64,000 nt of DNA from an uncultured Candidatus Saccharibacteria bacterium (GCA_964461915.1 CAYWVD010000001.1:407205-471204); one strand, 5' to 3'. Shown: positions 13,850-56,626, counted from the first letter of the stretch. Translations and numbers: made by a program. Notes: generated by a model not told the origin, from the letters alone.

Positions 13850-14737
13850 ATGAAAGTCAAGAAAGCCGTTATTACTGCCGCCGGATTTGGGTCGAGATTT
13901 TTACCATTCGTAAAAAACATTCCAAAGGAAATGCTTCCGATCATTAACAAACCTTCAATCCAATATCTAGTTGAAGAATGTAGAGTAGCTGGGATTGAAG
14001 AAGTTATTATTGTCACAAGAGACGAACATAGCCTTATTCAGGACTATTTCACGAAACCCGCACCAGATGTAAAAGCATTATTAGATATGCAGGGCAAATC
14101 TGAACGATTCACAGAAGTTGAAACTGTTTTAACCATGGAAAATATTAAATTTATTCAACAAGATGCCAGCCTTCCTTATGGAAACGGCTCGCCAGTTTTA
14201 TCGGCAAAAGATTATTTAACGCCGGGCGAGCCTTTTGCTTTGCTATTTGGAGATGATATGGTATTAAGCGAAAATTCAAATGCCTTAAAACAATTGGTCG
14301 ACTTTTTCGAAGTTACTGATTGCGATGCAGTTTTGGCCGTTCAAAAAACTCCAACTCACGAACTGAATCGATATGGAGTTGTTAAACCCTCTGAGTATCA
14401 TGAAGAAGAAAAATGGGGTGTATTTGAATACCTTGTAGAAAAACCAAAAGTCGAAGAAGCTCCTTCTGATTTAGTATCCTATGGTCGAATGATATTGCCA
14501 TATAAAGTTTTTGAATATCTTATCCCGACAGCAACTGGAAAAGATCAAGAATTATGGCTTCAAGATGCTAATGATAAACTTTCGAGAACAACCAGATTCT
14601 TGTTCAGGATAATCGATGGGGAATGGATGACAACCGGCGATCCTATCAGATATCTAAAAGCTCAGATAAAATACTATTTAACAAATCCAAAATTCAGCGA
14701 GGATACAAAAGCATTAATTCGGGAAACTTTAGTTTAA
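13850..14737 (+). CDS. galU: UTP--glucose-1-phosphate uridylyltransferase-type sugar nucleotidyltransferase (GalU family)
   Basis: MKVKKAVITAAGFGSRFLPFVKNIPKEMLPIINKPSIQYLVEE matches the GalU N-terminal signature. Confidence 0.75.
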   Translation: MKVKKAVITAAGFGSRFLPFVKNIPKEMLPIINKPSIQYLVEECRVAGIEEVIIVTRDEHSLIQDYFTKPAPDVKALLDMQGKSERFTEVETVLTMENIKFIQQDASLPYGNGSPVLSAKDYLTPGEPFALLFGDDMVLSENSNALKQLVDFFEVTDCDAVLAVQKTPTHELNRYGVVKPSEYHEEEKWGVFEYLVEKPKVEEAPSDLVSYGRMILPYKVFEYLIPTATGKDQELWLQDANDKLSRTTRFLFRIIDGEWMTTGDPIRYLKAQIKYYLTNPKFSEDTKALIRETLV

Positions 14738-15892
14738 TCTAAACACGTTTTCTATAATTAATTTTGATGCATTTGGATTAACCAATGCCACACCTTGTTG
14801 AATAGCTAAATTAATATCCCGATTTTGGAAATCTTTCTTTGAAATAAACTTTTCTAAAGCCAGGGCAATTGCATTATAAAGCTCCTCGGGTGGCATATCG
14901 TCATATTGTTTAAGGATATATCCAAGCCCCGTCTTTTCAACAATTTCAGCATTCTTTTGTTGTTCCATTTGTGAACTCCAAGGTATCGGAATAAGCACTG
15001 CCAACTTACCTAAAGCTAATATCTCAGTAACCGTATTGGCTCCCGACCTAGAAACGATAATATTTGCCATTCTCATATAATCATCGAAATTTTCGAAATC
15101 ATCGGCAAAAAATTTATAGGAACCTTTTAAATCTTCGGATAAATTATTAAAAATACTCTGTGCATTTTCAAAATCTTTTGTAATAGACGAATTCCCAACC
15201 TGATGAATGATGTTAACATTTGACAAAATTGAAGGCAGAAAAGCAAAAAGCCTTTTATTAATTGTATTTGCGCCTTGATTTCCGCCTGTAACCAAAATTA
15301 TTGGCTTTGAATTATTAAAAATATTGTTAATAACTTTTTGATTGTCAAAAAAGCCCCTCCTGAGTAGATTCCCTACTAAAAGCACCTTGTCTTTTTCAAA
15401 AAGGTTAATAGTTTCGGGCCATGAAAGAAAAACCCTATTTGCAAACTTCCCTGCATATCTATTCGCTGTGCCAATGACTGAAGTCTGCTCATGAATAATA
15501 GAATAAATTCCAAGTATCCTTGCCCACAGAATTAAAGGCAGTTGAAGATATCCACCAAAACCGATAACTAATTTGGGTCGCAACTTTAATAACAAGAAAA
15601 ATGCTTTTACAAATCCCCATGGTATTAATAACAATTGCAAGACGCCAAGATGAAAAGTTTTAATTGTCCATTTCCTCCAAAGTTTACCCGTTTTAAATTC
15701 ATAAAAGGGGATTTTTAATTTTTCGACTTCAATATATTCTGCACTTAAATTTGTTGAATTAGTCTGCGAATGTTTTGTACCTACCCAAAAGAGATTGTTG
15801 ATTTGATAGGCCTTAAATTCTTGAACTAATGCCAATGCTGGAGTCAGATGGCCCCCGATAAACATCACCTTTGCATTTTTATCAATATTCAT
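14729..15892 (-). CDS. murG: Undecaprenyldiphospho-muramoylpentapeptide beta-N-acetylglucosaminyltransferase (GT28)
   Basis: GT28 N- and C-terminal domains (FIGGHLTPALAL...; LVTGGNQGANTIN), directly downstream of ftsW. Confidence 0.75.
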   Translation of the reverse strand: MNIDKNAKVMFIGGHLTPALALVQEFKAYQINNLFWVGTKHSQTNSTNLSAEYIEVEKLKIPFYEFKTGKLWRKWTIKTFHLGVLQLLLIPWGFVKAFFLLLKLRPKLVIGFGGYLQLPLILWARILGIYSIIHEQTSVIGTANRYAGKFANRVFLSWPETINLFEKDKVLLVGNLLRRGFFDNQKVINNIFNNSKPIILVTGGNQGANTINKRLFAFLPSILSNVNIIHQVGNSSITKDFENAQSIFNNLSEDLKGSYKFFADDFENFDDYMRMANIIVSRSGANTVTEILALGKLAVLIPIPWSSQMEQQKNAEIVEKTGLGYILKQYDDMPPEELYNAIALALEKFISKKDFQNRDINLAIQQGVALVNPNASKLIIENVFRLN

Positions 15893-15915: not shown

Positions 15916-17214
15916 TTAACGATTTTTATAGCTTTTTCGCACACCAAATAACATTGGCTTTCTTTTACCTAAAGATTTAGCTTCTTCTCTAGGTTTTAAC
16001 CCTTTTGAAATATTTAATAATATTCCAATTGCTGCGAGATTAATAACAGTTGAACTTCCTCCATAACTCATAAATGGTAGGGTATTCCCGTTTATTGGGA
16101 TAAGGGCAACATTCGCGCCAATATGCAAAACTGCCTGCAAAGTTATCCAAGTGGTAATTGCAATTGCAATTAAAAATCCTAGTTTATCGGGGGCCTTCAT
16201 TGCAATCTTATAACCTAATAAAAAAATATAAATAAATACCCCGACTAAAACAATGCAGCCAATGAGACCAAATTCTTCTGCAAAAATTGCAAAAATAGTA
16301 TCGCTAAAGGCCGTTTCACCTAAATAGTGATACTTTTGACGAGATTCTCCAAAACCCACGCCAAACAGTCCACCCGAAGCAACCGCAATTAATATTTGTC
16401 TAAATTGGAATCCGGTATTGAAAGGATCGCTGATGTTTCCGGTTTTCCAAAAATCAAAGAATGTTTTAAATCTTGTCATCCTATAATCCGCGCTTAAAGT
16501 CATGATCCCCACAAGTAATGCGGAGAAGAGCCCCGTAGAAATCGATCCGATGGTATGCAAAACATCGCTACCCGAAATGAAATACAAAATAAAACAGGTG
16601 ACACCTAACATAATGGTTGTATCCATATCAGGCTCTATGATTATCAATCCGCAAACCACACCCAAAATACCTAAAAAGGGTAAAATATCAGATTTTATAT
16701 GTTTGATAATGGCTTTTTGTGTGATGTTTTTGACTTCTTTCTTTTTAGCTAAAAAGCTCGACAGATAAACTAATAGAGTAATTTTAGCTATTTCGGATGG
16801 CTGAAGATTGAAATATGTTAAATCTATCCATCTTTTGATGTCATTATCTCGATTAACGATAAGCACAACAACCAATAGAATTATAGAAATTATCAATCCT
16901 GGTAGTGATAATTTAGCCCAATAATGATAATCCACTTTGTATGCAATAAATAAAAATACTAGTCCAGCACCGATCCAAGCTAATTGATTTAAAAAATAAT
17001 GTTCAGGTGCAAAGTTCTGTTTAACGGCCACAACTATACTGCCGCTATATATCATCAAAGCTCCGAAAATTGAAAGAGCTAAAATTACAAAAAACAGCTG
17101 ATAATTTAAACCGCTTTTATGCCCATCAGGACTTCGTTTAAATTCTTCTCTCGAAAGTCCGGGATTTTTCTTTTTTAAGAAATCTGGTTTTTTGAAGTAT
17201 TTAAAAAGATTCAA
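15916..17214 (-). CDS. ftsW: SEDS-family peptidoglycan glycosyltransferase FtsW
   Basis: About 10 TM helices; SEDS motifs (QPSEIAKI; PFMSYGGSS); synteny with murG. Confidence 0.8.
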   Translation of the reverse strand: MNLFKYFKKPDFLKKKNPGLSREEFKRSPDGHKSGLNYQLFFVILALSIFGALMIYSGSIVVAVKQNFAPEHYFLNQLAWIGAGLVFLFIAYKVDYHYWAKLSLPGLIISIILLVVVLIVNRDNDIKRWIDLTYFNLQPSEIAKITLLVYLSSFLAKKKEVKNITQKAIIKHIKSDILPFLGILGVVCGLIIIEPDMDTTIMLGVTCFILYFISGSDVLHTIGSISTGLFSALLVGIMTLSADYRMTRFKTFFDFWKTGNISDPFNTGFQFRQILIAVASGGLFGVGFGESRQKYHYLGETAFSDTIFAIFAEEFGLIGCIVLVGVFIYIFLLGYKIAMKAPDKLGFLIAIAITTWITLQAVLHIGANVALIPINGNTLPFMSYGGSSTVINLAAIGILLNISKGLKPREEAKSLGKRKPMLFGVRKSYKNR

Positions 17215-44182: not shown

Positions 44183-45604
44183 TTAGTGCTTGATTTGGAT
44201 TAAAAGACTTTCAGAATCTAAGTATTCTTGGAAAGAAAGCTTAAATTGTTTCTGTGATGAAACTGTAAACTTGAAAGTTAACACATTTCCAGACTGTGAA
44301 GCTTCTAATGATTGAACATCTCTAGCACCAGGGAAAGTTTGCACTGGTGAAGCAACATTTCTTGCTTGAAGATTTGAAACTTCAACAATTAATACATTCC
44401 CTTCGTATTTTGCAGTTACAGTTGGATATTTACTTCCACCATCACCTTTGTTTATTGCTCTATAGAATCGGAATGCATCTGAATAATCTGCCCAGTTAAA
44501 TGATTTACCATTATTAAATAATCCAGCAGATGCTGAATTATTTGTTAATCCATCACTTAATTCTTGAGGATCAATTGAAAAAGTTGTTTCATTTGTCTTG
44601 CCAAGAGCATTTGTTGGTGTAAAGGTTGGCTTGGTTGTTGTCTTAACTGTTGTAGTTACAACAGGAGATCCCGTAACAACTGTTGAAGGTTCCACATTAG
44701 TATCTTCCACTTCAAGAATATCCAAATAAATAACTGGATTATCAGAAGTGCTTAAATGCAACAAGTATGCGGTTTCGTAATTCAAATTAACAGTAAATTC
44801 AATTGCTCCGTCAACTAAAGTAGATTCACTTGTTGTTAACGAACTTACAGTTTTAGAATTTATTGGCATTTCTTTGCCATTCAAAATCGTTGTATCAGCT
44901 CCTAGTGAAGTGTTTGAGAAAGTCAGTGAGATTTCATTTAAACCACTTTTAGTGTATTCTGCTAAAACAGCCGGTAGAGTAGATTCTCCTGTAAGTACTT
45001 CGGTTGAAAATGCAATTCTGGTAAATGAGGTAAAGAAAGAGACATCAAGATTAGATAGAGAGAATTGTGATTCAGATGCCGTTCCTACATTTTGTGTATT
45101 ATCTGTAAAAGTATCGAAGTCAGCCAAAGCATCAGCCTCACTATCAAGTTTTTGATCCTTATCAACAAAAACAGCTAGTGGATCTTCGGTTACGACAACT
45201 GTTGGTTCAACTCCAGTATCTGGAGAACTATTTAATACATTTTTTAATGCAAAATATGATGCTACAGCCAAAGCTACAACGATAATTACCCATATTACAA
45301 TTCTACTGGCAGAGCCCTTTTCGGCATCATCATTTTCTTTTTTTAACTTAACAGCGCCAGGGGGAACAGAAGCTTGCCTTGCAGGCTGTTCAATATTTGA
45401 CTGCAACCTAATTGGTTTGTCAAAGGCCCCGATTTTAGGGATTGAAGTTGGGAAAGAACTTCCACTAGAAATACTGGAAGACCTTTTTTGAGTTAGCGTT
45501 GGTCTTTCGCTATTTAAATCAGAAGGTTCTGGATTGGGCATCTTTAAATTTTTAAAATTTATTAACATATTCAGTATAGTGAAATTCTGTAAATGGTGCA
45601 ACAT
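44183..45604 (-). CDS. Hypothetical Ser/Thr-rich type-II membrane protein (cytoplasmic low-complexity N-terminus, one TM, extracellular domain)
   Basis: TM IVIWVIIVVALAVASYFAL at ~aa 105. Thr-rich linker (VVTTTVKTTTKPTFTPT). No recognisable catalytic motif. True start may be an internal Met (MPNPEP...). Confidence 0.45.
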   Translation of the reverse strand: MLHHLQNFTILNMLINFKNLKMPNPEPSDLNSERPTLTQKRSSSISSGSSFPTSIPKIGAFDKPIRLQSNIEQPARQASVPPGAVKLKKENDDAEKGSASRIVIWVIIVVALAVASYFALKNVLNSSPDTGVEPTVVVTEDPLAVFVDKDQKLDSEADALADFDTFTDNTQNVGTASESQFSLSNLDVSFFTSFTRIAFSTEVLTGESTLPAVLAEYTKSGLNEISLTFSNTSLGADTTILNGKEMPINSKTVSSLTTSESTLVDGAIEFTVNLNYETAYLLHLSTSDNPVIYLDILEVEDTNVEPSTVVTGSPVVTTTVKTTTKPTFTPTNALGKTNETTFSIDPQELSDGLTNNSASAGLFNNGKSFNWADYSDAFRFYRAINKGDGGSKYPTVTAKYEGNVLIVEVSNLQARNVASPVQTFPGARDVQSLEASQSGNVLTFKFTVSSQKQFKLSFQEYLDSESLLIQIKH

Positions 45605-48664: not shown

Positions 48665-49495
48665 CTATTTTAATAAAAGTCTTTTAATTTCTTCAAAAAG
48701 ACTATTGTTTGAGCAAATTAACCTTGTGTCATTAATTTTCGGGATAAAAACTTTTTCAGTTTTTCCACCTGCATATTTAATTAAAGCCCTTCCGGCAACA
48801 GTATCGTAATCAGGATCGTTCACCAAATATACTGAAGCATCAAGGCCACCCTGAGCCACCCAAGATAAAACAAGGGCTGAGCTTCCGATTTGCCTTATCC
48901 TATAACAAGCCTTTTCAAAATCATCAAGTTTTTTAAATACCCAATCTTTTTGATCATCCCAATTGGGGCGAAAGGGGACTATACCGATATTTATAATGGT
49001 TTCTTCAAGTTTATTTTTCATAGAGACTTTAAGTTCAATCCCATCTCGATTAGTTTTTTCAATTTCAGATCCAAAATACAATTCATTGGTGATAGGGTTC
49101 ATACAAGCCCCCAAAATCGGTTCTCCTTTGAATAAAATCCCTATTTGTGAAGAAAAAATTGGAATATGATTAGCAAAATATTTTGTACCATCAATTGGAT
49201 CAATAAAACACATAAAATCCTTATTTGGGATTTCCCATTCTTTATGTTCCTCCATTTCGAAACCCAATTCAGGGAATTTTTCATGCAATTGATGAAACAC
49301 AACTTCCTCTACAGATTTATCGATCTCAGTAACCATATCGAGATAATCTCTTTTGTCTTTCCCAATTTTTTGATCGATCAAAAAATTATTTTCGTAATAA
49401 CTTTTGGCAATTTTTGGAGCTTCGTTCTTTAAAATACTTTTAATTTCATTACCGACCTTTTGTAAAAAAAAGGTTTCTTCTTTTGTTAATTCCAT
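48665..49495 (-). CDS. Inositol monophosphatase family phosphatase (SuhB/CysQ/HisN-like)
   Basis: Metal-binding motifs E...DPIDGT and W.IDPIDGT-like; 276 aa; last gene of the glmS-glmM-glmU-like operon. Confidence 0.7.
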   Translation of the reverse strand: MELTKEETFFLQKVGNEIKSILKNEAPKIAKSYYENNFLIDQKIGKDKRDYLDMVTEIDKSVEEVVFHQLHEKFPELGFEMEEHKEWEIPNKDFMCFIDPIDGTKYFANHIPIFSSQIGILFKGEPILGACMNPITNELYFGSEIEKTNRDGIELKVSMKNKLEETIINIGIVPFRPNWDDQKDWVFKKLDDFEKACYRIRQIGSSALVLSWVAQGGLDASVYLVNDPDYDTVAGRALIKYAGGKTEKVFIPKINDTRLICSNNSLFEEIKRLLLK

Positions 49496-49505
49496 TTTTG
49501 ATTTT

Positions 49506-50384
49506 TTAAAAAACAGTATTTACGAAGTCTGACAATTTTTCCCAAATTTCAGGATTTTCTCTTGCTAATAATAAGTTCGCGATTAACCATGAATTGACAT
49601 TACCTGTATCGATATATTTCCCCTTGGGTTCATAGATTATTACTTTGCCATTTTGCGCTAACTTAGTGAATGCAGTAGTAAGATACAATTCACCTGTTTT
49701 AGGATCAGGCTCAACTTTATCAAGATATTCAAAAATTTTTGGAGAGAAAATACTCTTACTTAAAGTTACAAAATTTGAATTTACCTGACTTGGTTCAGGT
49801 TTTTCAATTTGATTGGTTAGTAATTTTACACCATTTTCTTCTTTGAATTCTGCAATCCCATACTGAGAGACCCTTTCCATAGGGACTTGAATACAAGTGA
49901 TTAATCCATCTGCGTTATTCTTTTCGAAATTTTCTATCATCAACTTTATTTCAGAATTCCCAGATTCATTTAAAAAGAAGTCATCTCCCGTTAAGGCCAA
50001 AAAGGCCTCCTCACCTTGCAGATACTCACGAGCAAGTTTTAAAGGAACGGCAGTTCCATAAGAATCCGTCTCGTTTTGTCTGACAAATTTAAAAGTCATC
50101 TTTGAATGAAGCTTTGAAATCTTAGAGTATTTATCAAGCTTTTTCATTCTTTCAAGGTACCTGTATATATATTGATCTTCACTATAGAAGCTTTTAATTT
50201 GATCATTTTTATCATTTACAACCAATATCACTTCTTCTATACCTGCTTCTATACAATCGTCTACGATATAATCGATTATTGGTTTATCTAAAATTGGAAG
50301 CATTTCTTTTTGAATAGTTTTTGTGATAGGGAAGAATCGTGTTCCCATACCTGCTGCAAAGATTACTGCTTTTCGGATTTTCAT
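49506..50384 (-). CDS. Sugar-1-phosphate nucleotidyltransferase (GalU-type fold); candidate GlcNAc-1-P/Glc-1-P uridylyltransferase half of a split GlmU
   Basis: MKIRKAVIFAAGMGTRFFPITKTIQKEMLPILDKPIIDYIVDD (GalU/RmlA-type G..AAG.GTR motif); immediately downstream of an LbH acetyltransferase and glmM/glmS. Confidence 0.65.
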   Translation of the reverse strand: MKIRKAVIFAAGMGTRFFPITKTIQKEMLPILDKPIIDYIVDDCIEAGIEEVILVVNDKNDQIKSFYSEDQYIYRYLERMKKLDKYSKISKLHSKMTFKFVRQNETDSYGTAVPLKLAREYLQGEEAFLALTGDDFFLNESGNSEIKLMIENFEKNNADGLITCIQVPMERVSQYGIAEFKEENGVKLLTNQIEKPEPSQVNSNFVTLSKSIFSPKIFEYLDKVEPDPKTGELYLTTAFTKLAQNGKVIIYEPKGKYIDTGNVNSWLIANLLLARENPEIWEKLSDFVNTVF

Positions 50385-50409
50385 GATAAAAATATATTAA
50401 TTAAATTTT

Positions 50410-51102
50410 TCAAAAAACAGTTCCATTACTCAATCGATTTTCGAGTAATTCGTTTTCATTTTTTACTTTTAGGAATTTTTTAGGTGGTATATATCCAGAC
50501 ACAGAGGCTAGAGTACTTATCAAGGAATCCTTCCCTATCATTGTCCCGGGCGAACTCATTACGCCTCCGCCTAATCTTGATCTTTCTCCTAAAATTATTC
50601 CAAGTTTATCTAGTCCAGTTTGAAGTTTTGTACCGTTATATGAAAATTCAATTGGCTTTTGGTCAAACCGGCGATTTGCTGTTTCGGTATGGCCACCGAG
50701 CCTTGCTTCGACACCAATAATACTATCTCCTAAAAATGTATGATTAGCTATTTTCGATCGTTCCATCATAATTGAATTTTTCACTTCAGCAGCATGGCCT
50801 ATAGAACATCCCTTTGAAATTATACTTCCGGGACGAATATTGGCATGAGGACCTATTTCTACATCATCATCAATATATACCGGCCCTTCAATTACGACAT
50901 AGGGAGATATCTTGCAATTGTGGCCGATATAAACTTTTCCAGTTGTAATTAGCGTTGGTTCGTTTGAATTAATTTCGCTATCAAGGATTTGTTCCTCTAA
51001 GATTCTCTTTAAACTCCCAATTACTAGATACCAATTATCCTTCTCAAATTCAGGTTTTAAAAATTCTGGAAGAAGAATTTGATCGAAAAAATCCGTGATC
51101 AT
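50410..51102 (-). CDS. Left-handed beta-helix (hexapeptide-repeat) acetyltransferase homologous to the GlmU C-terminal GlcN-1-P acetyltransferase domain
   Basis: AEVKNSIMMERSKIANHTFLGDSIIGVEARLGGHTETANRRFDQKP...GERSRLGGGVMSSPGTMIG aligns with GlmU VEVKNS.IG.GSK.NHL.YVGDSEIG...GAG.IT.NYDG.NK. No nucleotidyltransferase domain in the same ORF. Confidence 0.65.
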   Translation of the reverse strand: MITDFFDQILLPEFLKPEFEKDNWYLVIGSLKRILEEQILDSEINSNEPTLITTGKVYIGHNCKISPYVVIEGPVYIDDDVEIGPHANIRPGSIISKGCSIGHAAEVKNSIMMERSKIANHTFLGDSIIGVEARLGGHTETANRRFDQKPIEFSYNGTKLQTGLDKLGIILGERSRLGGGVMSSPGTMIGKDSLISTLASVSGYIPPKKFLKVKNENELLENRLSNGTVF

Positions 51103-51128
51103 AATTTATTCTTAAAAATTTTAATTTA

Positions 51129-52487
51129 TTAACTTAACTCTTCTTTACATATTTTCACAAGATCATTACCAACTTCTTCGAGTTTACCTTCTTCACGCGC
51201 TTCTACCATGATTCTTAAAAGATTCTCTGTCCCAGAATATCTTAAGAACACTCGGCCTTCGCCTTTGAATTCGTCGGTCCAATATTTGATTCTATCCTGG
51301 AGCCTTTCAATATCTTCTAAATCCTTTTTTTCTTGGACCTCAACATTGAAAACTTTTTGAGGGAATTTTTCAAAAGTATAAGCTAATTCACTCAAAGTTT
51401 TTCCTTTCTCTTTGATAATTTTCAAAACTTGCAATGCTGTTAAAGTCCCATCTCCCGCATCTGAATAGTCTAAGAAAATAAAATGGCCTGTAGCCTCACC
51501 ACCGAAATTAAGTTTTTCCTTTCTCAATAGTTCAGTAATAGCCCTATCTCCATTAACGACCTTTAATACATTAATACCTGCTTTTTCGAGTTCTTTAACT
51601 AAAGCTAAATTACTGTATTCGGTGATTACTACAGAATTTTTCTTTAATTCTCCTACCTCTTTAAAATATTTGGCAATTAAGGCTGTAATATAATTCCCAT
51701 CAATTTCATTCCCTTTTTCATCTATCATAATGACTCGATCAGCATCTCCATCAAGCGCTATACCAAGATCAGCCTTATTAGCCAAGACAGCCTCTTTCAC
51801 TTTTTCCGGGTAAAGTGATCCACAATCAACATTAATGTTATAACCGTTCGGCTCAATATTAATTGGGATGACTTTGGCGCCGAGTTCTGAAAATACATCA
51901 GGAGCGGTTTTATAGGCGGCGCCATTTGCGCAATCAACAACTATCGTTAAACCTTTTAAAGATGTTGATCCAATTGCGTGTTTTATATATTCCACATATC
52001 TTCCAGAGACATCTTCGAATCTTTTAGCTCTACCAATCTGATCAATTCCTTCAAAACCATTCTTGAAGTATACATCTTCTATTTCGAGTTCTTCTTCATC
52101 GGTTAGTTTATGGCCATTTGGGTTAAAAACTTTGATTCCATTATCATAATAAGGATTATGTGATGCAGTAATCATAATACCCATATCTAGAGCATAGCTT
52201 TTTACCAAATGGGAAATTGCAGGAGTAGGCATTGGCCCAACAGTTATAACATCAACTCCCCGACTCAAAAAACCTGCGGTTAAAGTTTGTTCTAACATAT
52301 AGCCGGACCTTCTGGTATCCTTCCCAATAATCACTTTATAACCACGATTTGGATTAGGAGCAACAGTTTTTTTTACATATTCAGCTAACGATTTACCTAA
52401 GCGAAGTACTGTTTCTGTGTCTAATGGGGCGTAATTGGCTTTTCCTCTTACTCCATCAGTTTCTCTAAATAGTTGTTTCTTCCTCAT
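51129..52487 (-). CDS. glmM: Phosphoglucosamine mutase
   Basis: Active-site loop GIMITASHNPYYDNGIK, four-domain phosphohexomutase; between glmS and the GlmU-like genes. Confidence 0.85.
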   Translation of the reverse strand: MRKKQLFRETDGVRGKANYAPLDTETVLRLGKSLAEYVKKTVAPNPNRGYKVIIGKDTRRSGYMLEQTLTAGFLSRGVDVITVGPMPTPAISHLVKSYALDMGIMITASHNPYYDNGIKVFNPNGHKLTDEEELEIEDVYFKNGFEGIDQIGRAKRFEDVSGRYVEYIKHAIGSTSLKGLTIVVDCANGAAYKTAPDVFSELGAKVIPINIEPNGYNINVDCGSLYPEKVKEAVLANKADLGIALDGDADRVIMIDEKGNEIDGNYITALIAKYFKEVGELKKNSVVITEYSNLALVKELEKAGINVLKVVNGDRAITELLRKEKLNFGGEATGHFIFLDYSDAGDGTLTALQVLKIIKEKGKTLSELAYTFEKFPQKVFNVEVQEKKDLEDIERLQDRIKYWTDEFKGEGRVFLRYSGTENLLRIMVEAREEGKLEEVGNDLVKICKEELS

Positions 52488-52545
52488 ATTTTAGACTTTT
52501 TAATAGTATATTGTTTTTTATGTTAACTTAAATACCAATTTTTTT

Positions 52546-54321
52546 CTACTTTACCGTAACACTTTTAGCAAGGTTTCGGGGTTTATCTGGACTATTTCCA
52601 AGATGAACACCCAAAAAGTAAGAAAGCAATTGAAAGGGGATTACATTCGGAATCGAATCAATCCCATTAGAGCTAATATCAACTGTTTTAATGAAATCAT
52701 TAAATAATTCGTTACTGGATTTCCCAATGCCAACGACATAGGCTCCACGGGCCTTTACTTGGGCTGCAGCACTCAACATATCGTTTTTATATTCATCCTC
52801 ACTGACAATTACAAAAACTGGTGTACCTTTATCGATTAAGGCTATTACTCCATGTTTTAATTCGCCAGCAGAAAATCCCTCAAAGTGTTTATAGGTAATT
52901 TCTTTGACTTTTAATGCGCCTTCTAAGGCTAGATAATAGTTTTGACCTTTTCCCAAGACAAAAAAGTGTTCTTTTTTGGCCATTTTTTTTGCAATTGATT
53001 GCATTTGGCTTAATAGTTTTTTTGAAAAATAGTTTTGAAGTTTATCGCTAATCTCCATAATTTCTTTTCTCGCTTGATTATATTGATCTGCGATGGCCAT
53101 AGCTAAAACAAAGCCCCAGCTAATTTGAGAGGTAAAGGCTTTTGTAGAAGCGACACAAATTTCGGGACCGGATCTGGAATAATAGGGGAAGTCACTAATT
53201 CTAGTAATGGTTGATCCGAGCATATTTACTAAACTCGCGACCTTTACTCCACTAGCTTTAGCTATTTCAAGTGCCTCAATAGTATCGGCAGTTTCGCCAC
53301 TTTGGGAGATTCCGATGATCACATCGTTTGGCTCAAACAGACCTCTGTAGCTATCAATATCATAAGATTTTAATTCTATGACATTTATTCCAGAAATTTT
53401 TCTTAAAAAATATGCAATCTGACCCGCAGCAAAACCGGCAGTTCCTGCTCCAACGGTATATACATGTCTTGCTTTTTTTATTGCTTTTATAAGGGGTTCG
53501 TATTCTGCCTCAGTATATTGAGCCGCTTCTCGGATAGTATGTTTCTGTTCAATTATTTCTTTGATCATAAAATGGTCATAACCCTCTTTTGCAATACTCA
53601 TATCTTCTTGTTCGATTTTATGCTCTTTGACTTTGATCTCGGTCCCACTTTCTACTTCAAACATTTTTAATTGGCCGTCATGATAAGCAACCATTTCGTA
53701 GTTATTGATGTAAACAACACGATTAGTAAAATTCGCAAAAGATAAGGTATCCGAAGCAATAAATACTTCTTTTTCACCAACACCAACCACAAGTGGAGAA
53801 CCGTTCCTAACTGCATAAATTGTCGAACCGGTCGTAGGTAGTACAATAATTGTATTTCTTCCTTCCAGATCTAAAAAGGCAAGCCTCACAGCCTTAAACA
53901 AATCCTTAGTTTTCTTTAGTTTTTCCTCAATAAGTCTAACAATAACTTCAGTATCTGTTTGCGAACTAAACTTATATCCTTTTTTTAAAAGATCTTCTTT
54001 AAGTTTCTGAAAATTCTCAACAATTCCATTTTGGGCAACAACAAAAGATTTATCTGTTGAAAAATGTGGATGGGCATTAACATTCGTAACTCCCCCGTGT
54101 GTGGCCCAACGGGTATGTCCGATTCCAATATTGGAATGGGGAAGTTTCTCAAGCTCTTTCAAGTCTCCAATAGCCCCAACCTTTTTAACAACCTCAATAC
54201 CTTCGGGATCAACTACAGCTACCCCCCAAGAATCATAACCTCGATATTCTAATCTTTTTAAGCCTTCAATAATTGTTTTTGCAGCATCACGCTTGCCAGA
54301 GTATCCAAAAATTCCGCACAT
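52546..54321 (-). CDS. glmS: Glutamine--fructose-6-phosphate aminotransferase (isomerizing)
   Basis: N-terminal nucleophile MCGIFGY, two SIS domains, C-terminal ...VTVK; 591 aa. Confidence 0.9.
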   Translation of the reverse strand: MCGIFGYSGKRDAAKTIIEGLKRLEYRGYDSWGVAVVDPEGIEVVKKVGAIGDLKELEKLPHSNIGIGHTRWATHGGVTNVNAHPHFSTDKSFVVAQNGIVENFQKLKEDLLKKGYKFSSQTDTEVIVRLIEEKLKKTKDLFKAVRLAFLDLEGRNTIIVLPTTGSTIYAVRNGSPLVVGVGEKEVFIASDTLSFANFTNRVVYINNYEMVAYHDGQLKMFEVESGTEIKVKEHKIEQEDMSIAKEGYDHFMIKEIIEQKHTIREAAQYTEAEYEPLIKAIKKARHVYTVGAGTAGFAAGQIAYFLRKISGINVIELKSYDIDSYRGLFEPNDVIIGISQSGETADTIEALEIAKASGVKVASLVNMLGSTITRISDFPYYSRSGPEICVASTKAFTSQISWGFVLAMAIADQYNQARKEIMEISDKLQNYFSKKLLSQMQSIAKKMAKKEHFFVLGKGQNYYLALEGALKVKEITYKHFEGFSAGELKHGVIALIDKGTPVFVIVSEDEYKNDMLSAAAQVKARGAYVVGIGKSSNELFNDFIKTVDISSNGIDSIPNVIPFQLLSYFLGVHLGNSPDKPRNLAKSVTVK

Positions 54322-54430
54322 ACTTTTTTATTTATAAAAAATATTAATATAATTTATCATAACTTCCCTAACGCCATCTTACACTCATAATTACATTTAA
54401 GAAAATTTTTTAATGATATAATAAACGAGT

Positions 54431-55867
54431 ATGGAAAAGAAATATTTAATAACAAATTATGGATGCCAAATGAATTACGCTGACAGCGAAAGATTCTCTG
54501 GCATTATTGAATTAGGATGTGATTATCAAAAGACAGATTCATTAGAATCCGCGGACTTAATCATTTTAAATTCTTGCTCGATTAGACAAAAGGCCGAAGA
54601 TCGAGTTTTGGGTTTGGGCAAAAAAATGCTCAAATTAAAATCTCACAATAAAAACCTAAAAATCGTCCTTACAGGATGTATGGCACGAAGGACATGGGCA
54701 GGCACAACCAAAACTGGATCACCCATCCAAATGACACAAAAAGACAGAGAAGATCAACTAAAAAAGACCTTGCCATGGCTTGATTTTGTAATTGAAAGTA
54801 AGGACTTTCACAAATTACCCGAAAAGCTAGGAATTAAAAACAAAACCGAGATTAAAGAATACTTATCCTTTGAACCTATCTTAAATTCAGATTTCCAAGC
54901 TTATGTACCAATTTCCATAGGCTGTGACCATTTTTGCACATATTGTATAGTGCCATTTGCAAGGGGGCGAGAAATCTGTAGAAAACCTGAAGACATTATA
55001 AAAGAAGTCAAACATCTGATTCTTAGTGGATACAAAGATATTACTTTACTTGGGCAAACTGTTAATAGATGGATTGACCCAGCTTTCGATTTTGATTACA
55101 AACAAGGCAATATTGCCAACACAAAAATTGAAAAATTAAATAAAACTCTCCTTAGAAATCCGAAGAACGAATCTCCAAAAGACTTTTTGCAATTACTACA
55201 AGTGATCGACGAAATAGAAGGGGACTATTGGCTGACATTTATGTCCTCCCACCCCAACTATATGACTAGCGAACTCATCGACTTTATTAGTAAATCAAAA
55301 CACATTAGACCATACATTCATTTTGCATTGCAATCGGGATCCGATAAAATCCTTCAAAGAATGAATAGGCGATACAATTCTTCAGAATTCAAGTCAATCG
55401 CAAAAGAAATGAAAGAAAAGATCCCCGGACTTGGGCTTTCCACCGATGTCATTGTCGGCTTCCCCGGCGAAACCGAAGAGGATCTCAAACTAACAGCAAA
55501 ACTTATGAAAGAACTGGAATTTGACATGGCATATATTTCAGAATTCTCTCCACGAAAAGGTACGGCTGCAGGGCTCATTAAGGACGATATCTCTTGGGAT
55601 AAAAAAGCTGAATGGAAAAAATATCTAAATGATGAAATCTTAGCAAAAACGGTCAGAAAAAATAATGAAAAAATGCTTGGGACAATTCAAAAATGTTTAG
55701 TAGAAAAAGATCTTGGCAAAGGCAAATATCTAGCTAGGACAGCTAATTACAAGGAAGTTAGTTTTAAGGTCTACGATGAAAAATCCAAAATAAATTTAGG
55801 AGATTTTGTGATTTTAAAGATAACTAAGGCTACAAATTGGGCATTATCGGGGGAGAAGGCCTCTTAA
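54431..55867 (+). CDS. miaB: MiaB-family radical-SAM tRNA methylthiotransferase
   Basis: MTTase N-domain YLITNYGCQMNYADSE, radical SAM CDHFCTYCIVP, C-terminal TRAM domain. Confidence 0.75.
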   Translation: MEKKYLITNYGCQMNYADSERFSGIIELGCDYQKTDSLESADLIILNSCSIRQKAEDRVLGLGKKMLKLKSHNKNLKIVLTGCMARRTWAGTTKTGSPIQMTQKDREDQLKKTLPWLDFVIESKDFHKLPEKLGIKNKTEIKEYLSFEPILNSDFQAYVPISIGCDHFCTYCIVPFARGREICRKPEDIIKEVKHLILSGYKDITLLGQTVNRWIDPAFDFDYKQGNIANTKIEKLNKTLLRNPKNESPKDFLQLLQVIDEIEGDYWLTFMSSHPNYMTSELIDFISKSKHIRPYIHFALQSGSDKILQRMNRRYNSSEFKSIAKEMKEKIPGLGLSTDVIVGFPGETEEDLKLTAKLMKELEFDMAYISEFSPRKGTAAGLIKDDISWDKKAEWKKYLNDEILAKTVRKNNEKMLGTIQKCLVEKDLGKGKYLARTANYKEVSFKVYDEKSKINLGDFVILKITKATNWALSGEKAS

Positions 55868-56626
55868 TAAGATCTTTTCGGCAATAAGCGCGATAGTGGA
55901 TTGATTTGGATGCATAACTCCTTCATGAATAAACCTTGCATTACTTGGAATAGCCTCAGTAAGTCTTAAAAACAATGGAATTTGAAAATGATTTCCCAAA
56001 GTGAATAGTTCGTGTTTCTCAGGATTAATAGTGTTACAAGCACTTATATGAACTTCTCCTAATAAACCCTGTCCAACTAAGGAAGGTATTTCTTTTATCC
56101 ACTCCCTTTGAATGTCTGAGGGCATTTGTAGAGCATGTTGGACATCATAACAAAGACGAAAATTTTTCTTAAAATACTCGTCAAAATCCCTCGGACGGCA
56201 ACCAAAAGATCCGCCGTTTCCTCCCATATTTTCAATAAACACAGGAGCTATTGTCTTAAAAGGATCTAGGCATTCAATATCTTCAAGGGGATGTGCAACG
56301 AAATTCCTAATGGGTATATTTAAAAGCCCCTTAAAGCCCAATAAAACATTATAAAAACTTCTATAATCATTGCTTTTATAAGGGGTTTTTGTTGGTAGAT
56401 GAATGCTAAGCGCATCTTCTGAAAGATTTAACTCATTTATTGCCTGGGCAACTAGTGGATAAATCGTTCCAAATAATCTAGGATAAGCAATATTCAATTC
56501 AACTGGAAAAGTAGAAGCAATATGTTCAGATTTCATCACCCTTCCAATCCCCCCAATAGCCCCAACTAAATTTCGTGGATGCTTTTGATAGAGAGTCCCT
56601 GTTGAAAAACCTAAACCTCCTGTCAT
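55844..56626 (-). CDS. Hypothetical protein, possible xylose-isomerase-like TIM-barrel (sugar-phosphate isomerase/epimerase) family
   Basis: Weak resemblance only (FIENMGGNGG...CYDVQHALQM...GEVHIS); no confident motif. Confidence 0.3.
   Translation of the reverse strand: MTGGLGFSTGTLYQKHPRNLVGAIGGIGRVMKSEHIASTFPVELNIAYPRLFGTIYPLVAQAINELNLSEDALSIHLPTKTPYKSNDYRSFYNVLLGFKGLLNIPIRNFVAHPLEDIECLDPFKTIAPVFIENMGGNGGSFGCRPRDFDEYFKKNFRLCYDVQHALQMPSDIQREWIKEIPSLVGQGLLGEVHISACNTINPEKHELFTLGNHFQIPLFLRLTEAIPSNARFIHEGVMHPNQSTIALIAEKILLRGLLPR

Follow-up and report, generated by a model that had tools for sequence, protein, structure and literature searches.

GlmU is treated as a universal, essential and bifunctional enzyme of bacteria and as an antibiotic target. 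Here we analyse a stretch of 64,000 nucleotides from an uncultured Candidatus Saccharibacteria bacterium (GCA_964461915.1, CAYWVD010000001.1:407205–471204; the whole stretch is referred to as the window, and positions are counted from its first letter) that contains, at positions 48,665–54,321, a minus-strand cluster of five genes. The cluster encodes GlmS, GlmM, a stand-alone left-handed beta-helix acetyltransferase-like protein (LbH), a GalU-family nucleotidyltransferase (NTase) that we call NT1, and an IMPase-family phosphatase. It probably specifies the synthesis of UDP-N-acetylglucosamine (UDP-GlcNAc) with two separate proteins in place of GlmU. The closest named relatives are Candidatus Dojkabacteria (WS6), a lineage of the Patescibacteria or Candidate Phyla Radiation (CPR).

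A glm gene cluster with separate acetyltransferase-like and nucleotidyltransferase genes

All five open reading frames (ORFs) lie head to tail, with gaps of 58 (glmS–glmM), 26 (glmM–LbH), 25 (LbH–NT1) and 10 (NT1–IMPase) nucleotides. The features of the cluster are:

52546–54321, minus strand: glmS, glutamine–fructose-6-phosphate aminotransferase, 591 residues (TIGR01135, NF001484)
51129–52487, minus strand: glmM, phosphoglucosamine mutase, 452 residues (TIGR01455)
50410–51102, minus strand: stand-alone LbH acetyltransferase-like protein of the 'xFRR' subfamily, putative glucosamine-1-phosphate (GlcN-1-P) N-acetyltransferase, 230 residues (C-terminal half of TIGR03992)
49506–50384, minus strand: NT1, GalU-family sugar-1-phosphate nucleotidyltransferase, putative N-acetylglucosamine-1-phosphate (GlcNAc-1-P) uridylyltransferase, 292 residues (PF00483)
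48665–49495, minus strand: IMPase-family phosphatase, last gene of the cluster, 276 residues (PF00459)
54322–54430, unstranded: divergent intergenic region of 109 nucleotides between glmS and a MiaB-like radical-SAM gene, the presumed promoter region

The first two genes pass equivalog cutoffs. Specifically, GlmS scores 596 bits against TIGR01135 (cutoff 418) and 614.6 bits against NF001484, contains a GATase domain and two SIS domains, and has MCGIFGY with Cys2 at its N-terminus; GlmM scores 524.7 bits against TIGR01455 (cutoff 447.6) and has four PGM/PMM domains with the phosphoserine motif SHNP at residue 109. All functions that we assign beyond these two genes are predictions. A terminator scan found no minus-strand terminator-like hairpin within the cluster, and in neither the promoter nor the terminator scan were matches more frequent than in shuffled sequence. 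Neither a glmS ribozyme nor any other Rfam family was detected at gathering thresholds in the region 5′ of glmS (54322–54430).

An identical LbH protein is encoded within the same string of genes on at least six independent assemblies (L001–L006), including contigs of 98 and 173 kb, and the longest contig with an identical LbH is 808 kb. The order glmS-glmM-LbH-NT1 is also kept in five Dojkabacteria-like loci (L007, L009, L011, L012 and L092), with contig ends cutting off three others (L010, glmM-LbH-NT1; L008, LbH-NT1-IMPase; L025, glmS-glmM and the start of LbH). LbH identity across the Dojkabacteria-like loci is only 51–71%, an NT1 orthologue lies directly downstream of LbH in L007, L008, L009–L012 and L092, and the gap between the two genes is 2–17 nucleotides in the relatives with ORF maps. 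At least 18 LbH/NT1 pairs fall on contigs of identical size, many of them 3–7 kb long. Since the gene string is present on independent assemblies and in diverged relatives, it is neither an assembly artefact nor a frameshifted fusion.

LbH resembles the C-terminal half of archaeal-type GlmU

Profile hidden Markov model assignment, which an earlier note on this DNA had proposed as a check on both ORFs, places LbH in the C-terminal half of TIGR03992 and NT1 in PF00483 and, below cutoff, in galU. LbH has Hexapep repeats, and its top curated model is TIGR03992 (Arch_glmU), which it matches over positions 230–389 of 393 (149.8 bits, E 1e-43), below the whole-protein cutoff of 292.1; the protein, at 230 residues, has no fused NTase domain. 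The bacterial GlmU models give just 56–60 bits (TIGR01173, 56.4 bits; cutoff 366.85), and NCBIfam contains no model whose cutoff LbH passes. Weaker Pfam matches, all below cutoff, are to LbH_EIF2B (47.8 bits), GMPPB_C (23.2 bits) and LbH_GLGC (18.1 bits). There are more than 1000 homologues of LbH, and the best 120 are all 186–255 residues long.

Among known systems, one of the closest is ST0452 of Sulfolobus tokodaii (2GGO, 5Z09/5Z0A), an archaeal-type bifunctional sugar-1-phosphate nucleotidylyltransferase/acetyltransferase. A profile made from 16 LbH homologues matches ST0452 chains (2ggo/5z09) with an E-value of 1e-48 over chain residues 211–400, and an AlphaFold (AF2) model of LbH (pLDDT 93) matches the C-terminal domain of ST0452 in Foldseek with a TM of 0.77, an rmsd of 1.6 Å and 34% identity; bacterial GlmUs rank next. 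WlbB and QdtC are also among the sequence and structure matches (3fs8, E 5.5e-15; 3mqg/3mqh). The first 50 residues of LbH form two helices, and residues from about 26 on align with an ST0452 segment (211–240) that precedes the LbH domain of that protein. Retention of this segment is the pattern expected if a fused ancestor lost its NTase domain. The arrangement of LbH with NT1 looks like the loss of an NTase domain together with the adoption of a non-orthologous NTase.

LbH belongs to a subfamily with an altered active site

The earlier note had described strong similarity of LbH to the C-terminal domain of GlmU, including the motif NS.IG..SK..HL.Y.GD. The homology is borne out by the match to TIGR03992, but the canonical His and Tyr of the motif have been lost. 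The motif reads NSIMMERSKIANHTFLGD in the LbH of the window, and gapless HMMER alignment with ST0452 and with bacterial GlmUs sets N120-H121-T122-F123-L-G-D against the canonical H-x-x-Y-x-G-D. The counterparts of N120 and F123 are H308 and Y311 in ST0452 and, presumably, H363 and Y366 in E. coli GlmU. The sites concerned are:

50734–50745, minus strand: codons of N120-H121-T122-F123, the canonical GlmU H-x-x-Y site (gapless HMMER alignments)
50671–50703, minus strand: from the R134 codon (50701–50703) to the R144 codon (50671–50673), the subfamily-specific Arg pair

A census of this signature in 222 aligned family members, taken from protein matches and 80 genomic loci, indicated that the loss is subfamily-wide. 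H..Y is present in 41 of the 44 fused NTase-LbH proteins, and the signature of the stand-alone subfamily is [N/S/D]..F. This 'xFRR' subfamily comprises 155 distinct stand-alone sequences, from Dojkabacteria, Saccharibacteria, and metagenome-assembled genomes (MAGs) of Clostridia and Bacilli. Comparison with 50 canonical sequences revealed five positions at which the two groups differ: 120 (His in canonical sequences, Asn, Ser or Asp in the subfamily), 123 (Tyr in 100%, Phe in 93%), 134 (Asn in 90%, Arg in 99%), 144 (Leu in 90%, Arg in 99%) and 166 (Lys in 100%, Lys in 48%). The subfamily has conserved residues of its own (K117, Q148, R176, F6 and N222). Invariant in both groups are R90, K108, G125-D126-S127, N143, R145 and D147, together with the distal coils; F146 is invariant as well, and E106 is conserved. 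We take R90, E106/K108 and N143 to be equivalent to the sugar-phosphate ligands R333, E349/K351 and N377 of E. coli GlmU, in our numbering. The distal coils of LbH, G..R.G....PG..G (G168..R176.G178...P185-G186), align with ST0452.

LbH and ST0452 have in common IEGPVYI, RP, EVK, GDS and N-x-RFD, as well as the distal G..R.G....PG..IG coils. LbH differs in length (230 residues, with no NTase domain, versus about 400), in having Asn for H308 and Phe for Y311, in Arg134 and Arg144, and in the extra conserved residues F6 and N222 near its N- and C-termini. In neighbour-joining analysis, the method used for all our trees, 74 of 100 bootstrap replicates grouped the stand-alone subfamily as a clade after removal of the signature columns.

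In the Dojkabacteria clade almost all proteins have His121: 79 of the 80 aligned sequences that carry Asn120. Hexapeptide-repeat geometry suggests that His121 probably shares the exposed turn of the canonical His and may serve as a shifted base. In the Clostridia/Bacilli clade position 120 is Ser or Asp, and there is no His.

We note three further kinds of LbH-containing protein. A second kind of stand-alone LbH, found in Opitutales and one Nanoarchaeia MAG, retains H..Y; in Opitutales/Verrucomicrobia MAGs (L043, L053, L062 and L068) it is followed by an ORF of 461–462 residues, which Pfam identifies as an MgtE magnesium transporter (L043 and L068 only). A fused NTase-LbH protein of 410 residues from Woesebacteria (L040, 6314–7546) has Ser and Phe at the His and Tyr sites and Lys at both 'Arg' positions. 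We considered this protein as an ancestor-like base of the subfamily, a candidate that we rejected: it was basal in one tree, and the grouping had a bootstrap of just 4 of 100. Lastly, in Thermoplasmata-type archaeal loci (L054, 106–5500; L056, 3272–7498) two fused NTase-LbH paralogues flank glmS (together with glmM in L054), and one paralogue in each locus is without the canonical acetyltransferase residues (signatures S-N-F / H-R-D, with divergent ligands).

NT1 is a GalU-family protein with a second paralogue in the window

NT1 matches PF00483 with 123.7 bits; its Pfam matches are to PF00483 and PF12804 only, and it has no PF01704 UDPGP domain. Its top model is TIGR01099 (galU), with 208.7 bits against a cutoff of 326.8. 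NT1 is alignable over its full length with Helicobacter pylori GalU (3JUJ/3JUK; 146 bits), and scores 107.9 bits against the N-terminal part of TIGR03992, 51.8 bits against TIGR01173, and only 20–39 bits against the fused NTase-containing GlmU proteins of other CPR bacteria and archaea. The contrast between 146 bits to GalU and 20–39 bits to fused GlmUs indicates that NT1 is a member of the GalU family and not a detached N-terminal domain of GlmU.

A paralogue of NT1 lies elsewhere in the window, outside the operon:

13850–14737, plus strand: NT2, second GalU-like paralogue, 295 residues (TIGR01099, 205.8 bits, also below the cutoff)

NT2 is 33% identical to NT1. Both proteins keep the catalytic and UDP-glucose-binding motifs GxGTR, KEMLP (K/E), GDD, YG and EKP, the residues of which have been assigned to the binding of uridine, Mg2+, glucose and phosphate (PMC11796359; 10.1101/2020.11.30.405621). 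Relative to GalU, NT1 has YGTA for GLGHA, SKS (SKY in the NT1 family) for GRY and, in the protein of the window, T-T for T-D; NT2 keeps the GalU-like GRY that NT1 is without, and both have Tyr in place of the Leu of GLGHA. A motif comparison found no sequence position separating NT1 from NT2 or GalU that would predict the C2 substituent of the substrate.

NT1 and NT2 represent two distinct families that are present in several lineages of Patescibacteria. In three near-complete genomes, orthologues of NT1 and NT2 are on contigs of matching length (963318, 1116673 and 1209287 bp) and presumably on the same contigs, with LbH likewise on those of 963318 and 1209287 bp, so that the two paralogues probably coexist in reduced genomes of about 1 Mb. 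This apparent coexistence would leave one paralogue free for a role other than that of GalU. No other LbH, NTase or UDPGP ORF besides LbH, NT1 and NT2 was found in the window.

NT2 is convergent with murG (14729–15892, an overlap of 9 nucleotides), which is followed by ftsW (15916–17214); the NT2-murG-ftsW arrangement is also present in a WS6 locus (L096). In other Patescibacteria, NT1-like genes are near a GT4/UbiA cluster or near mraZ-mraW-PBP, and NT2-like genes are beside murG-ftsW or occur as two tandem copies next to genes for an epimerase and an aminotransferase. These neighbourhoods give a mixed picture and do not discriminate between sugar roles. The tandem pair is in a Pacebacteria locus (L094, 5001–9285) in which two NT2-type genes, the second of them 51% identical to NT2 and 37% to NT1, precede genes for an NAD-dependent epimerase and an aminotransferase, and which looks like a nucleotide-sugar modification cluster. 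On the WS6/Dojkabacteria-related contig L096, a type II CRISPR-Cas locus (1–2651; a 976-residue HNH/RuvC protein, Cas1 and Cas2) lies upstream of the NT2 orthologue, at a distance of about 2.3 kb.

These analyses uphold several points that the earlier note had read from the sequence: the five-gene minus-strand string glmS-glmM-LbH-NTase-IMPase, evident in the ORF map and profiles; the location of the acetyltransferase-like and NTase functions on separate genes, with LbH first (two ORFs with stop codons and a 25-nucleotide gap, separate in all relatives); an NTase of GalU rather than GlmU type; and a second GalU paralogue at 13850. Its description of the pair as a GlmU split into two genes in reversed domain order does not hold, because LbH is related to archaeal-type GlmU and keeps the segment equivalent to ST0452 211–240, and NT1 is far closer to GalU than to fused GlmUs.

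LbH occurs beside unrelated uridylyltransferase families

The main evidence on function comes from comparing gene neighbourhoods between lineages. Outside Dojkabacteria the partners of subfamily LbH genes vary. In Clostridia MAGs (L019, L021, L022 and L027) a PF01704 UDPGP gene of UAP1/NagU-like type is found directly upstream of LbH; in L023 and L050 the upstream gene encodes a GlmU-N-like NTP-transferase, and these two loci represent true NTase-then-LbH splits. PF01704 is the family of UAP1 and, we infer, of NagU from Staphylococcus aureus. A preprint shows that S. aureus uses this UAP1-like NagU, and reports that in many NagU-containing bacteria GlmU is truncated, split or absent (Fong et al., bioRxiv, June 2026, 10.64898/2026.06.23.733835). 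In Nanosyncoccus (Saccharibacteria) the order is pta-glmM-LbH (L024, 4787–7678), which ties an acetyl-CoA-forming enzyme to the LbH module, and L026 also has glmM-LbH. Archaea and several other Patescibacteria have the ordinary fused form, often adjoining glmS or glmM. Location of LbH beside one of three unrelated families of uridylyltransferase, or beside GlmM and an acetyl-CoA-forming enzyme, is the pattern expected of a GlcN-1-P acetyltransferase.

A predicted two-protein route to UDP-GlcNAc

The reading that we favour, and consider probable, is that LbH acetylates GlcN-1-P and NT1 uridylylates GlcNAc-1-P, two separate proteins replacing the bifunctional GlmU within a UDP-GlcNAc operon. By family membership, GlmS converts fructose-6-phosphate (Fru-6-P) to glucosamine-6-phosphate (GlcN-6-P) and GlmM converts this to GlcN-1-P. 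LbH, presumably a trimer like other LbH acyltransferases, would then use acetyl-CoA to form GlcNAc-1-P, as suggested by homology, conserved ligands and gene context. Finally, NT1 would combine GlcNAc-1-P with UTP to give UDP-GlcNAc, a role to which gene context and not a sequence signature points: we assign it because of the conserved adjacency to LbH, the absence of any other NTase or UDPGP ORF from the window besides NT2, and the availability of a spare paralogue. The product would feed MurG and presumably MurA; the UDP-GlcNAc consumers murG and ftsW are both encoded in the window.

In this reading, loss of the NTase domain from a fused GlmU of archaeal type would have given rise to LbH, whose active site is remodelled, with phosphate and sugar ligands kept, the base His replaced by Asn120, the Tyr replaced by Phe123, and R134 and R144 gained. 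Because His and Tyr are missing, catalysis probably proceeds either without a classical general base or with His121. The amine might be activated by His121, by a lowered pKa next to R134 and R144, or without any base; base-free catalysis has reportedly been proposed for the LbH N-acetyltransferases WlbB and QdtC. More tentatively, we propose that 'xFRR' LbH proteins are a distinct clade of amino-sugar-phosphate N-acetyltransferases that work without the GlmU His and Tyr (through a shifted His121 or by Arg-assisted, base-free catalysis) and serve as a portable module, and that a GalU-family enzyme was recruited as the GlcNAc-1-P uridylyltransferase in Dojkabacteria.

Several observations weigh against assigning the two GlmU activities to LbH and NT1. 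LbH is without the canonical catalytic His and Tyr, and the His of H-x-x-Y is regarded as essential in canonical GlmU and in ST0452. NT1 keeps all of the GalU residues listed for binding glucose and UDP. NT1 and NT2 are equidistant from GalU (mean scores to bona fide GalU of 140 bits for the NT1 family and 145 bits for the NT2 family), which makes the sequence silent on which of them, if either, takes GlcNAc-1-P. Outside Dojkabacteria, in other Patescibacteria that include Woesebacteria (L087–L091), NT1-family genes are not beside glm genes.

The most serious alternative is that LbH is indeed a GlcN-1-P acetyltransferase and NT1 a plain UDP-glucose pyrophosphorylase, GalU, that lies in the operon by chance; uridylylation of GlcNAc-1-P would then fall to NT2 or to an enzyme with its gene outside the window. 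The family assignment of NT1, its intact glucose-binding residues and the lack of linkage to glm genes in Woesebacteria and other Patescibacteria would all fit, as would the position of NT2 beside murG and ftsW both here and in WS6. We nevertheless consider this explanation unlikely: in all Dojkabacteria-like loci that reach past LbH, the next gene is NT1, with gaps of 2–25 nucleotides despite about 50% divergence; the gene adjoining subfamily LbH elsewhere is also from some uridylyltransferase family; and it is NT2, not NT1, that has kept the GRY motif.

Highly improbable, in our view, is an inverted order of reactions in which NT1 converts GlcN-1-P to UDP-GlcN and LbH then N-acetylates UDP-GlcN, with the extra Arg pair binding the diphosphate. 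Such an order would account for the gain of R134 and R144 and for the loss of the His and Tyr that position GlcN-1-P in GlmU. GalU enzymes are said to accept GlcN-1-P, and many LbH N-acetyltransferases reportedly act on nucleotide-linked amino sugars, WlbB and QdtC (both among the matches of LbH) included. Yet the LbH gene precedes NT1, the residues that bind the sugar 1-phosphate in GlmU are invariant, and subfamily LbH genes also occur beside UAP1/NagU-like genes, whose S. aureus member is reported to be specific for the conversion of GlcNAc-1-P to UDP-GlcNAc.

The missing catalytic His and Tyr, and the sub-cutoff Pfam matches of LbH to non-catalytic LbH families (LbH_EIF2B, GMPPB_C and LbH_GLGC), raise a third alternative, namely that LbH is a dead regulatory or scaffold beta-helix that modulates NT1, comparable to the LbH domains of GMPPA, eIF2B-epsilon and ADP-glucose pyrophosphorylase, and that acetylation takes place elsewhere. 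We give this little credence: R90, K108, N143, the 'NRRFDQ' segment and the distal coils in common with ST0452 hardly vary among the 155 sequences, the subfamily is linked in Saccharibacteria with pta and glmM, and neither the operon nor the window showed another candidate for an acetyltransferase. Moreover, partners as varied as three unrelated NTase families are hard to reconcile with a dedicated regulatory subunit. A eukaryote-like order, in which LbH first acetylates GlcN-6-P, and the GlcNAc-6-P formed is isomerised by the GlmM-type mutase before NT1 uridylylates GlcNAc-1-P, would suit the remodelled acceptor site and the pairing of Clostridia subfamily LbH with UAP1/NagU-type genes, but is barely credible given that the mutase passes the bacterial GlmM equivalog cutoff, that glmM precedes LbH and that LbH is homologous to GlcN-1-P-specific GlmU domains.

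The IMPase-family gene has a conserved position in one subclade

The last gene of the cluster encodes a member of PF00459 (121.6 bits, E 5.5e-35) with intact metal-binding motifs (DPIDGT at residue 99 and YDTVAG at residue 230). Its scores against NCBIfam equivalogs all fall below cutoff (HisN, 97.6 bits against 275; IMPase, 76.8 against 332; CysQ, 76.3 against 229; FBPase/IMPase, 74.5 against 264), and its relatives in the PDB match evenly and weakly (68–80 bits). A metagenome scan with this protein returned one locus, at 98% identity, from essentially the same organism. The earlier note had left the presence of the gene unexplained, with its family correctly named; what can be added is that its position is conserved. 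Specifically, L008 and L092/L093 have the gene at this position, with a convergent uvrA after it, and it is absent after NT1 in the other four Dojkabacteria-like loci that reach past NT1 (L009–L012). The L092 copy is only 31% identical to that of the window (NT1 there is 54% identical), and conservation of position despite such divergence indicates that the gene has long belonged to the operon in one subclade. A doubtful guess is that it encodes a sugar-phosphate phosphatase, for example one of FBPase/IMPase type that supplies Fru-6-P to GlmS, which would explain the linkage.

Relation to known routes to UDP-GlcNAc

The proposed route has the same predicted chemistry and pathway position as bacterial GlmU (E. 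coli; TIGR01173), with which LbH shares the fold and the sugar-phosphate ligands, and differs from it in the separation of the genes, the GalU-family NTase and the absence of equivalents of His363 and Tyr366. NT1 keeps the G-x-G-T-R, KEMLP, GDD, YG and EKP motifs of GalU (H. pylori 3JUJ/3JUK; TIGR01099), but is sub-cutoff, is encoded within a glm operon and is accompanied in the window by a second GalU-like paralogue. WlbB and QdtC, which also have the LbH fold and may offer a precedent for catalysis without His, differ in their substrates, which are nucleotide-linked amino sugars, and in being only distant relatives; they are a lead rather than a test. In the eukaryotic GNA1/AGM1/UAP1 pathway, acetyltransferase and uridylyltransferase are likewise monofunctional (PMC10087520), but a GNAT-fold enzyme acetylates GlcN-6-P, whereas the operon described here has an LbH protein and a bacterial-type GlmM.

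A parallel is the NagU system, in which acetyl- and uridylyltransferase reside on separate bacterial proteins and which the PF01704-LbH loci of Clostridia and the stand-alone LbH loci of Opitutales fit. It differs in that the uridylyltransferase candidate here is of the GalU family (PF00483) and not the UAP1 family, and in that the host lineage is Patescibacteria. That the GlmU activities can be separate in bacteria is, as a general idea, already reported there (10.64898/2026.06.23.733835). Its main text makes no mention of Patescibacteria, and no mention of loss of the catalytic His and Tyr was noticed in the parts consulted. Nothing relevant came from full-text literature searches that combined GlmU with 'Candidate Phyla Radiation' or 'Patescibacteria'. 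What appears to be undescribed is the GalU-family partner in Patescibacteria, the archaeal-type origin of the stand-alone acetyltransferase, and the subfamily-wide loss of His and Tyr with gain of two Arg residues.

Genome annotation and metabolic reconstruction for candidate phyla rely on finding GlmU. In the sources the products of the LbH and NT1 genes are named 'hypothetical', 'NDP-sugar pyrophosphorylase' or 'UTP--glucose-1-phosphate uridylyltransferase', and a pipeline that looks for glmU would call incomplete a pathway in which the two proteins together probably supply a cell-wall precursor. If the more tentative proposal on 'xFRR' proteins is correct, bacteria would have a third independent route to UDP-GlcNAc, in addition to fused GlmU and GlmU/NagU, and an inhibitor or annotation rule directed at GlmU would miss the organisms that use it. 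The three interchangeable uridylyltransferase partners exemplify non-orthologous displacement around a conserved LbH module, and the altered catalytic site of LbH raises the enzymological question of how an amine is activated without His.

Other features of the window

The G+C content is about 34% throughout the window, and the only Rfam matches in the whole of it are three tRNAs (Phe, Val and Gln). Two minus-strand ORFs, of 260 residues (55844–56626) and 473 residues (44183–45604), are without an NCBIfam match; both are also called as genes, without a Pfam match, on the independent contigs L001/L002. Between the 260-residue ORF and the 3′ end of the MiaB-like gene there is an overlap of 24 nucleotides.

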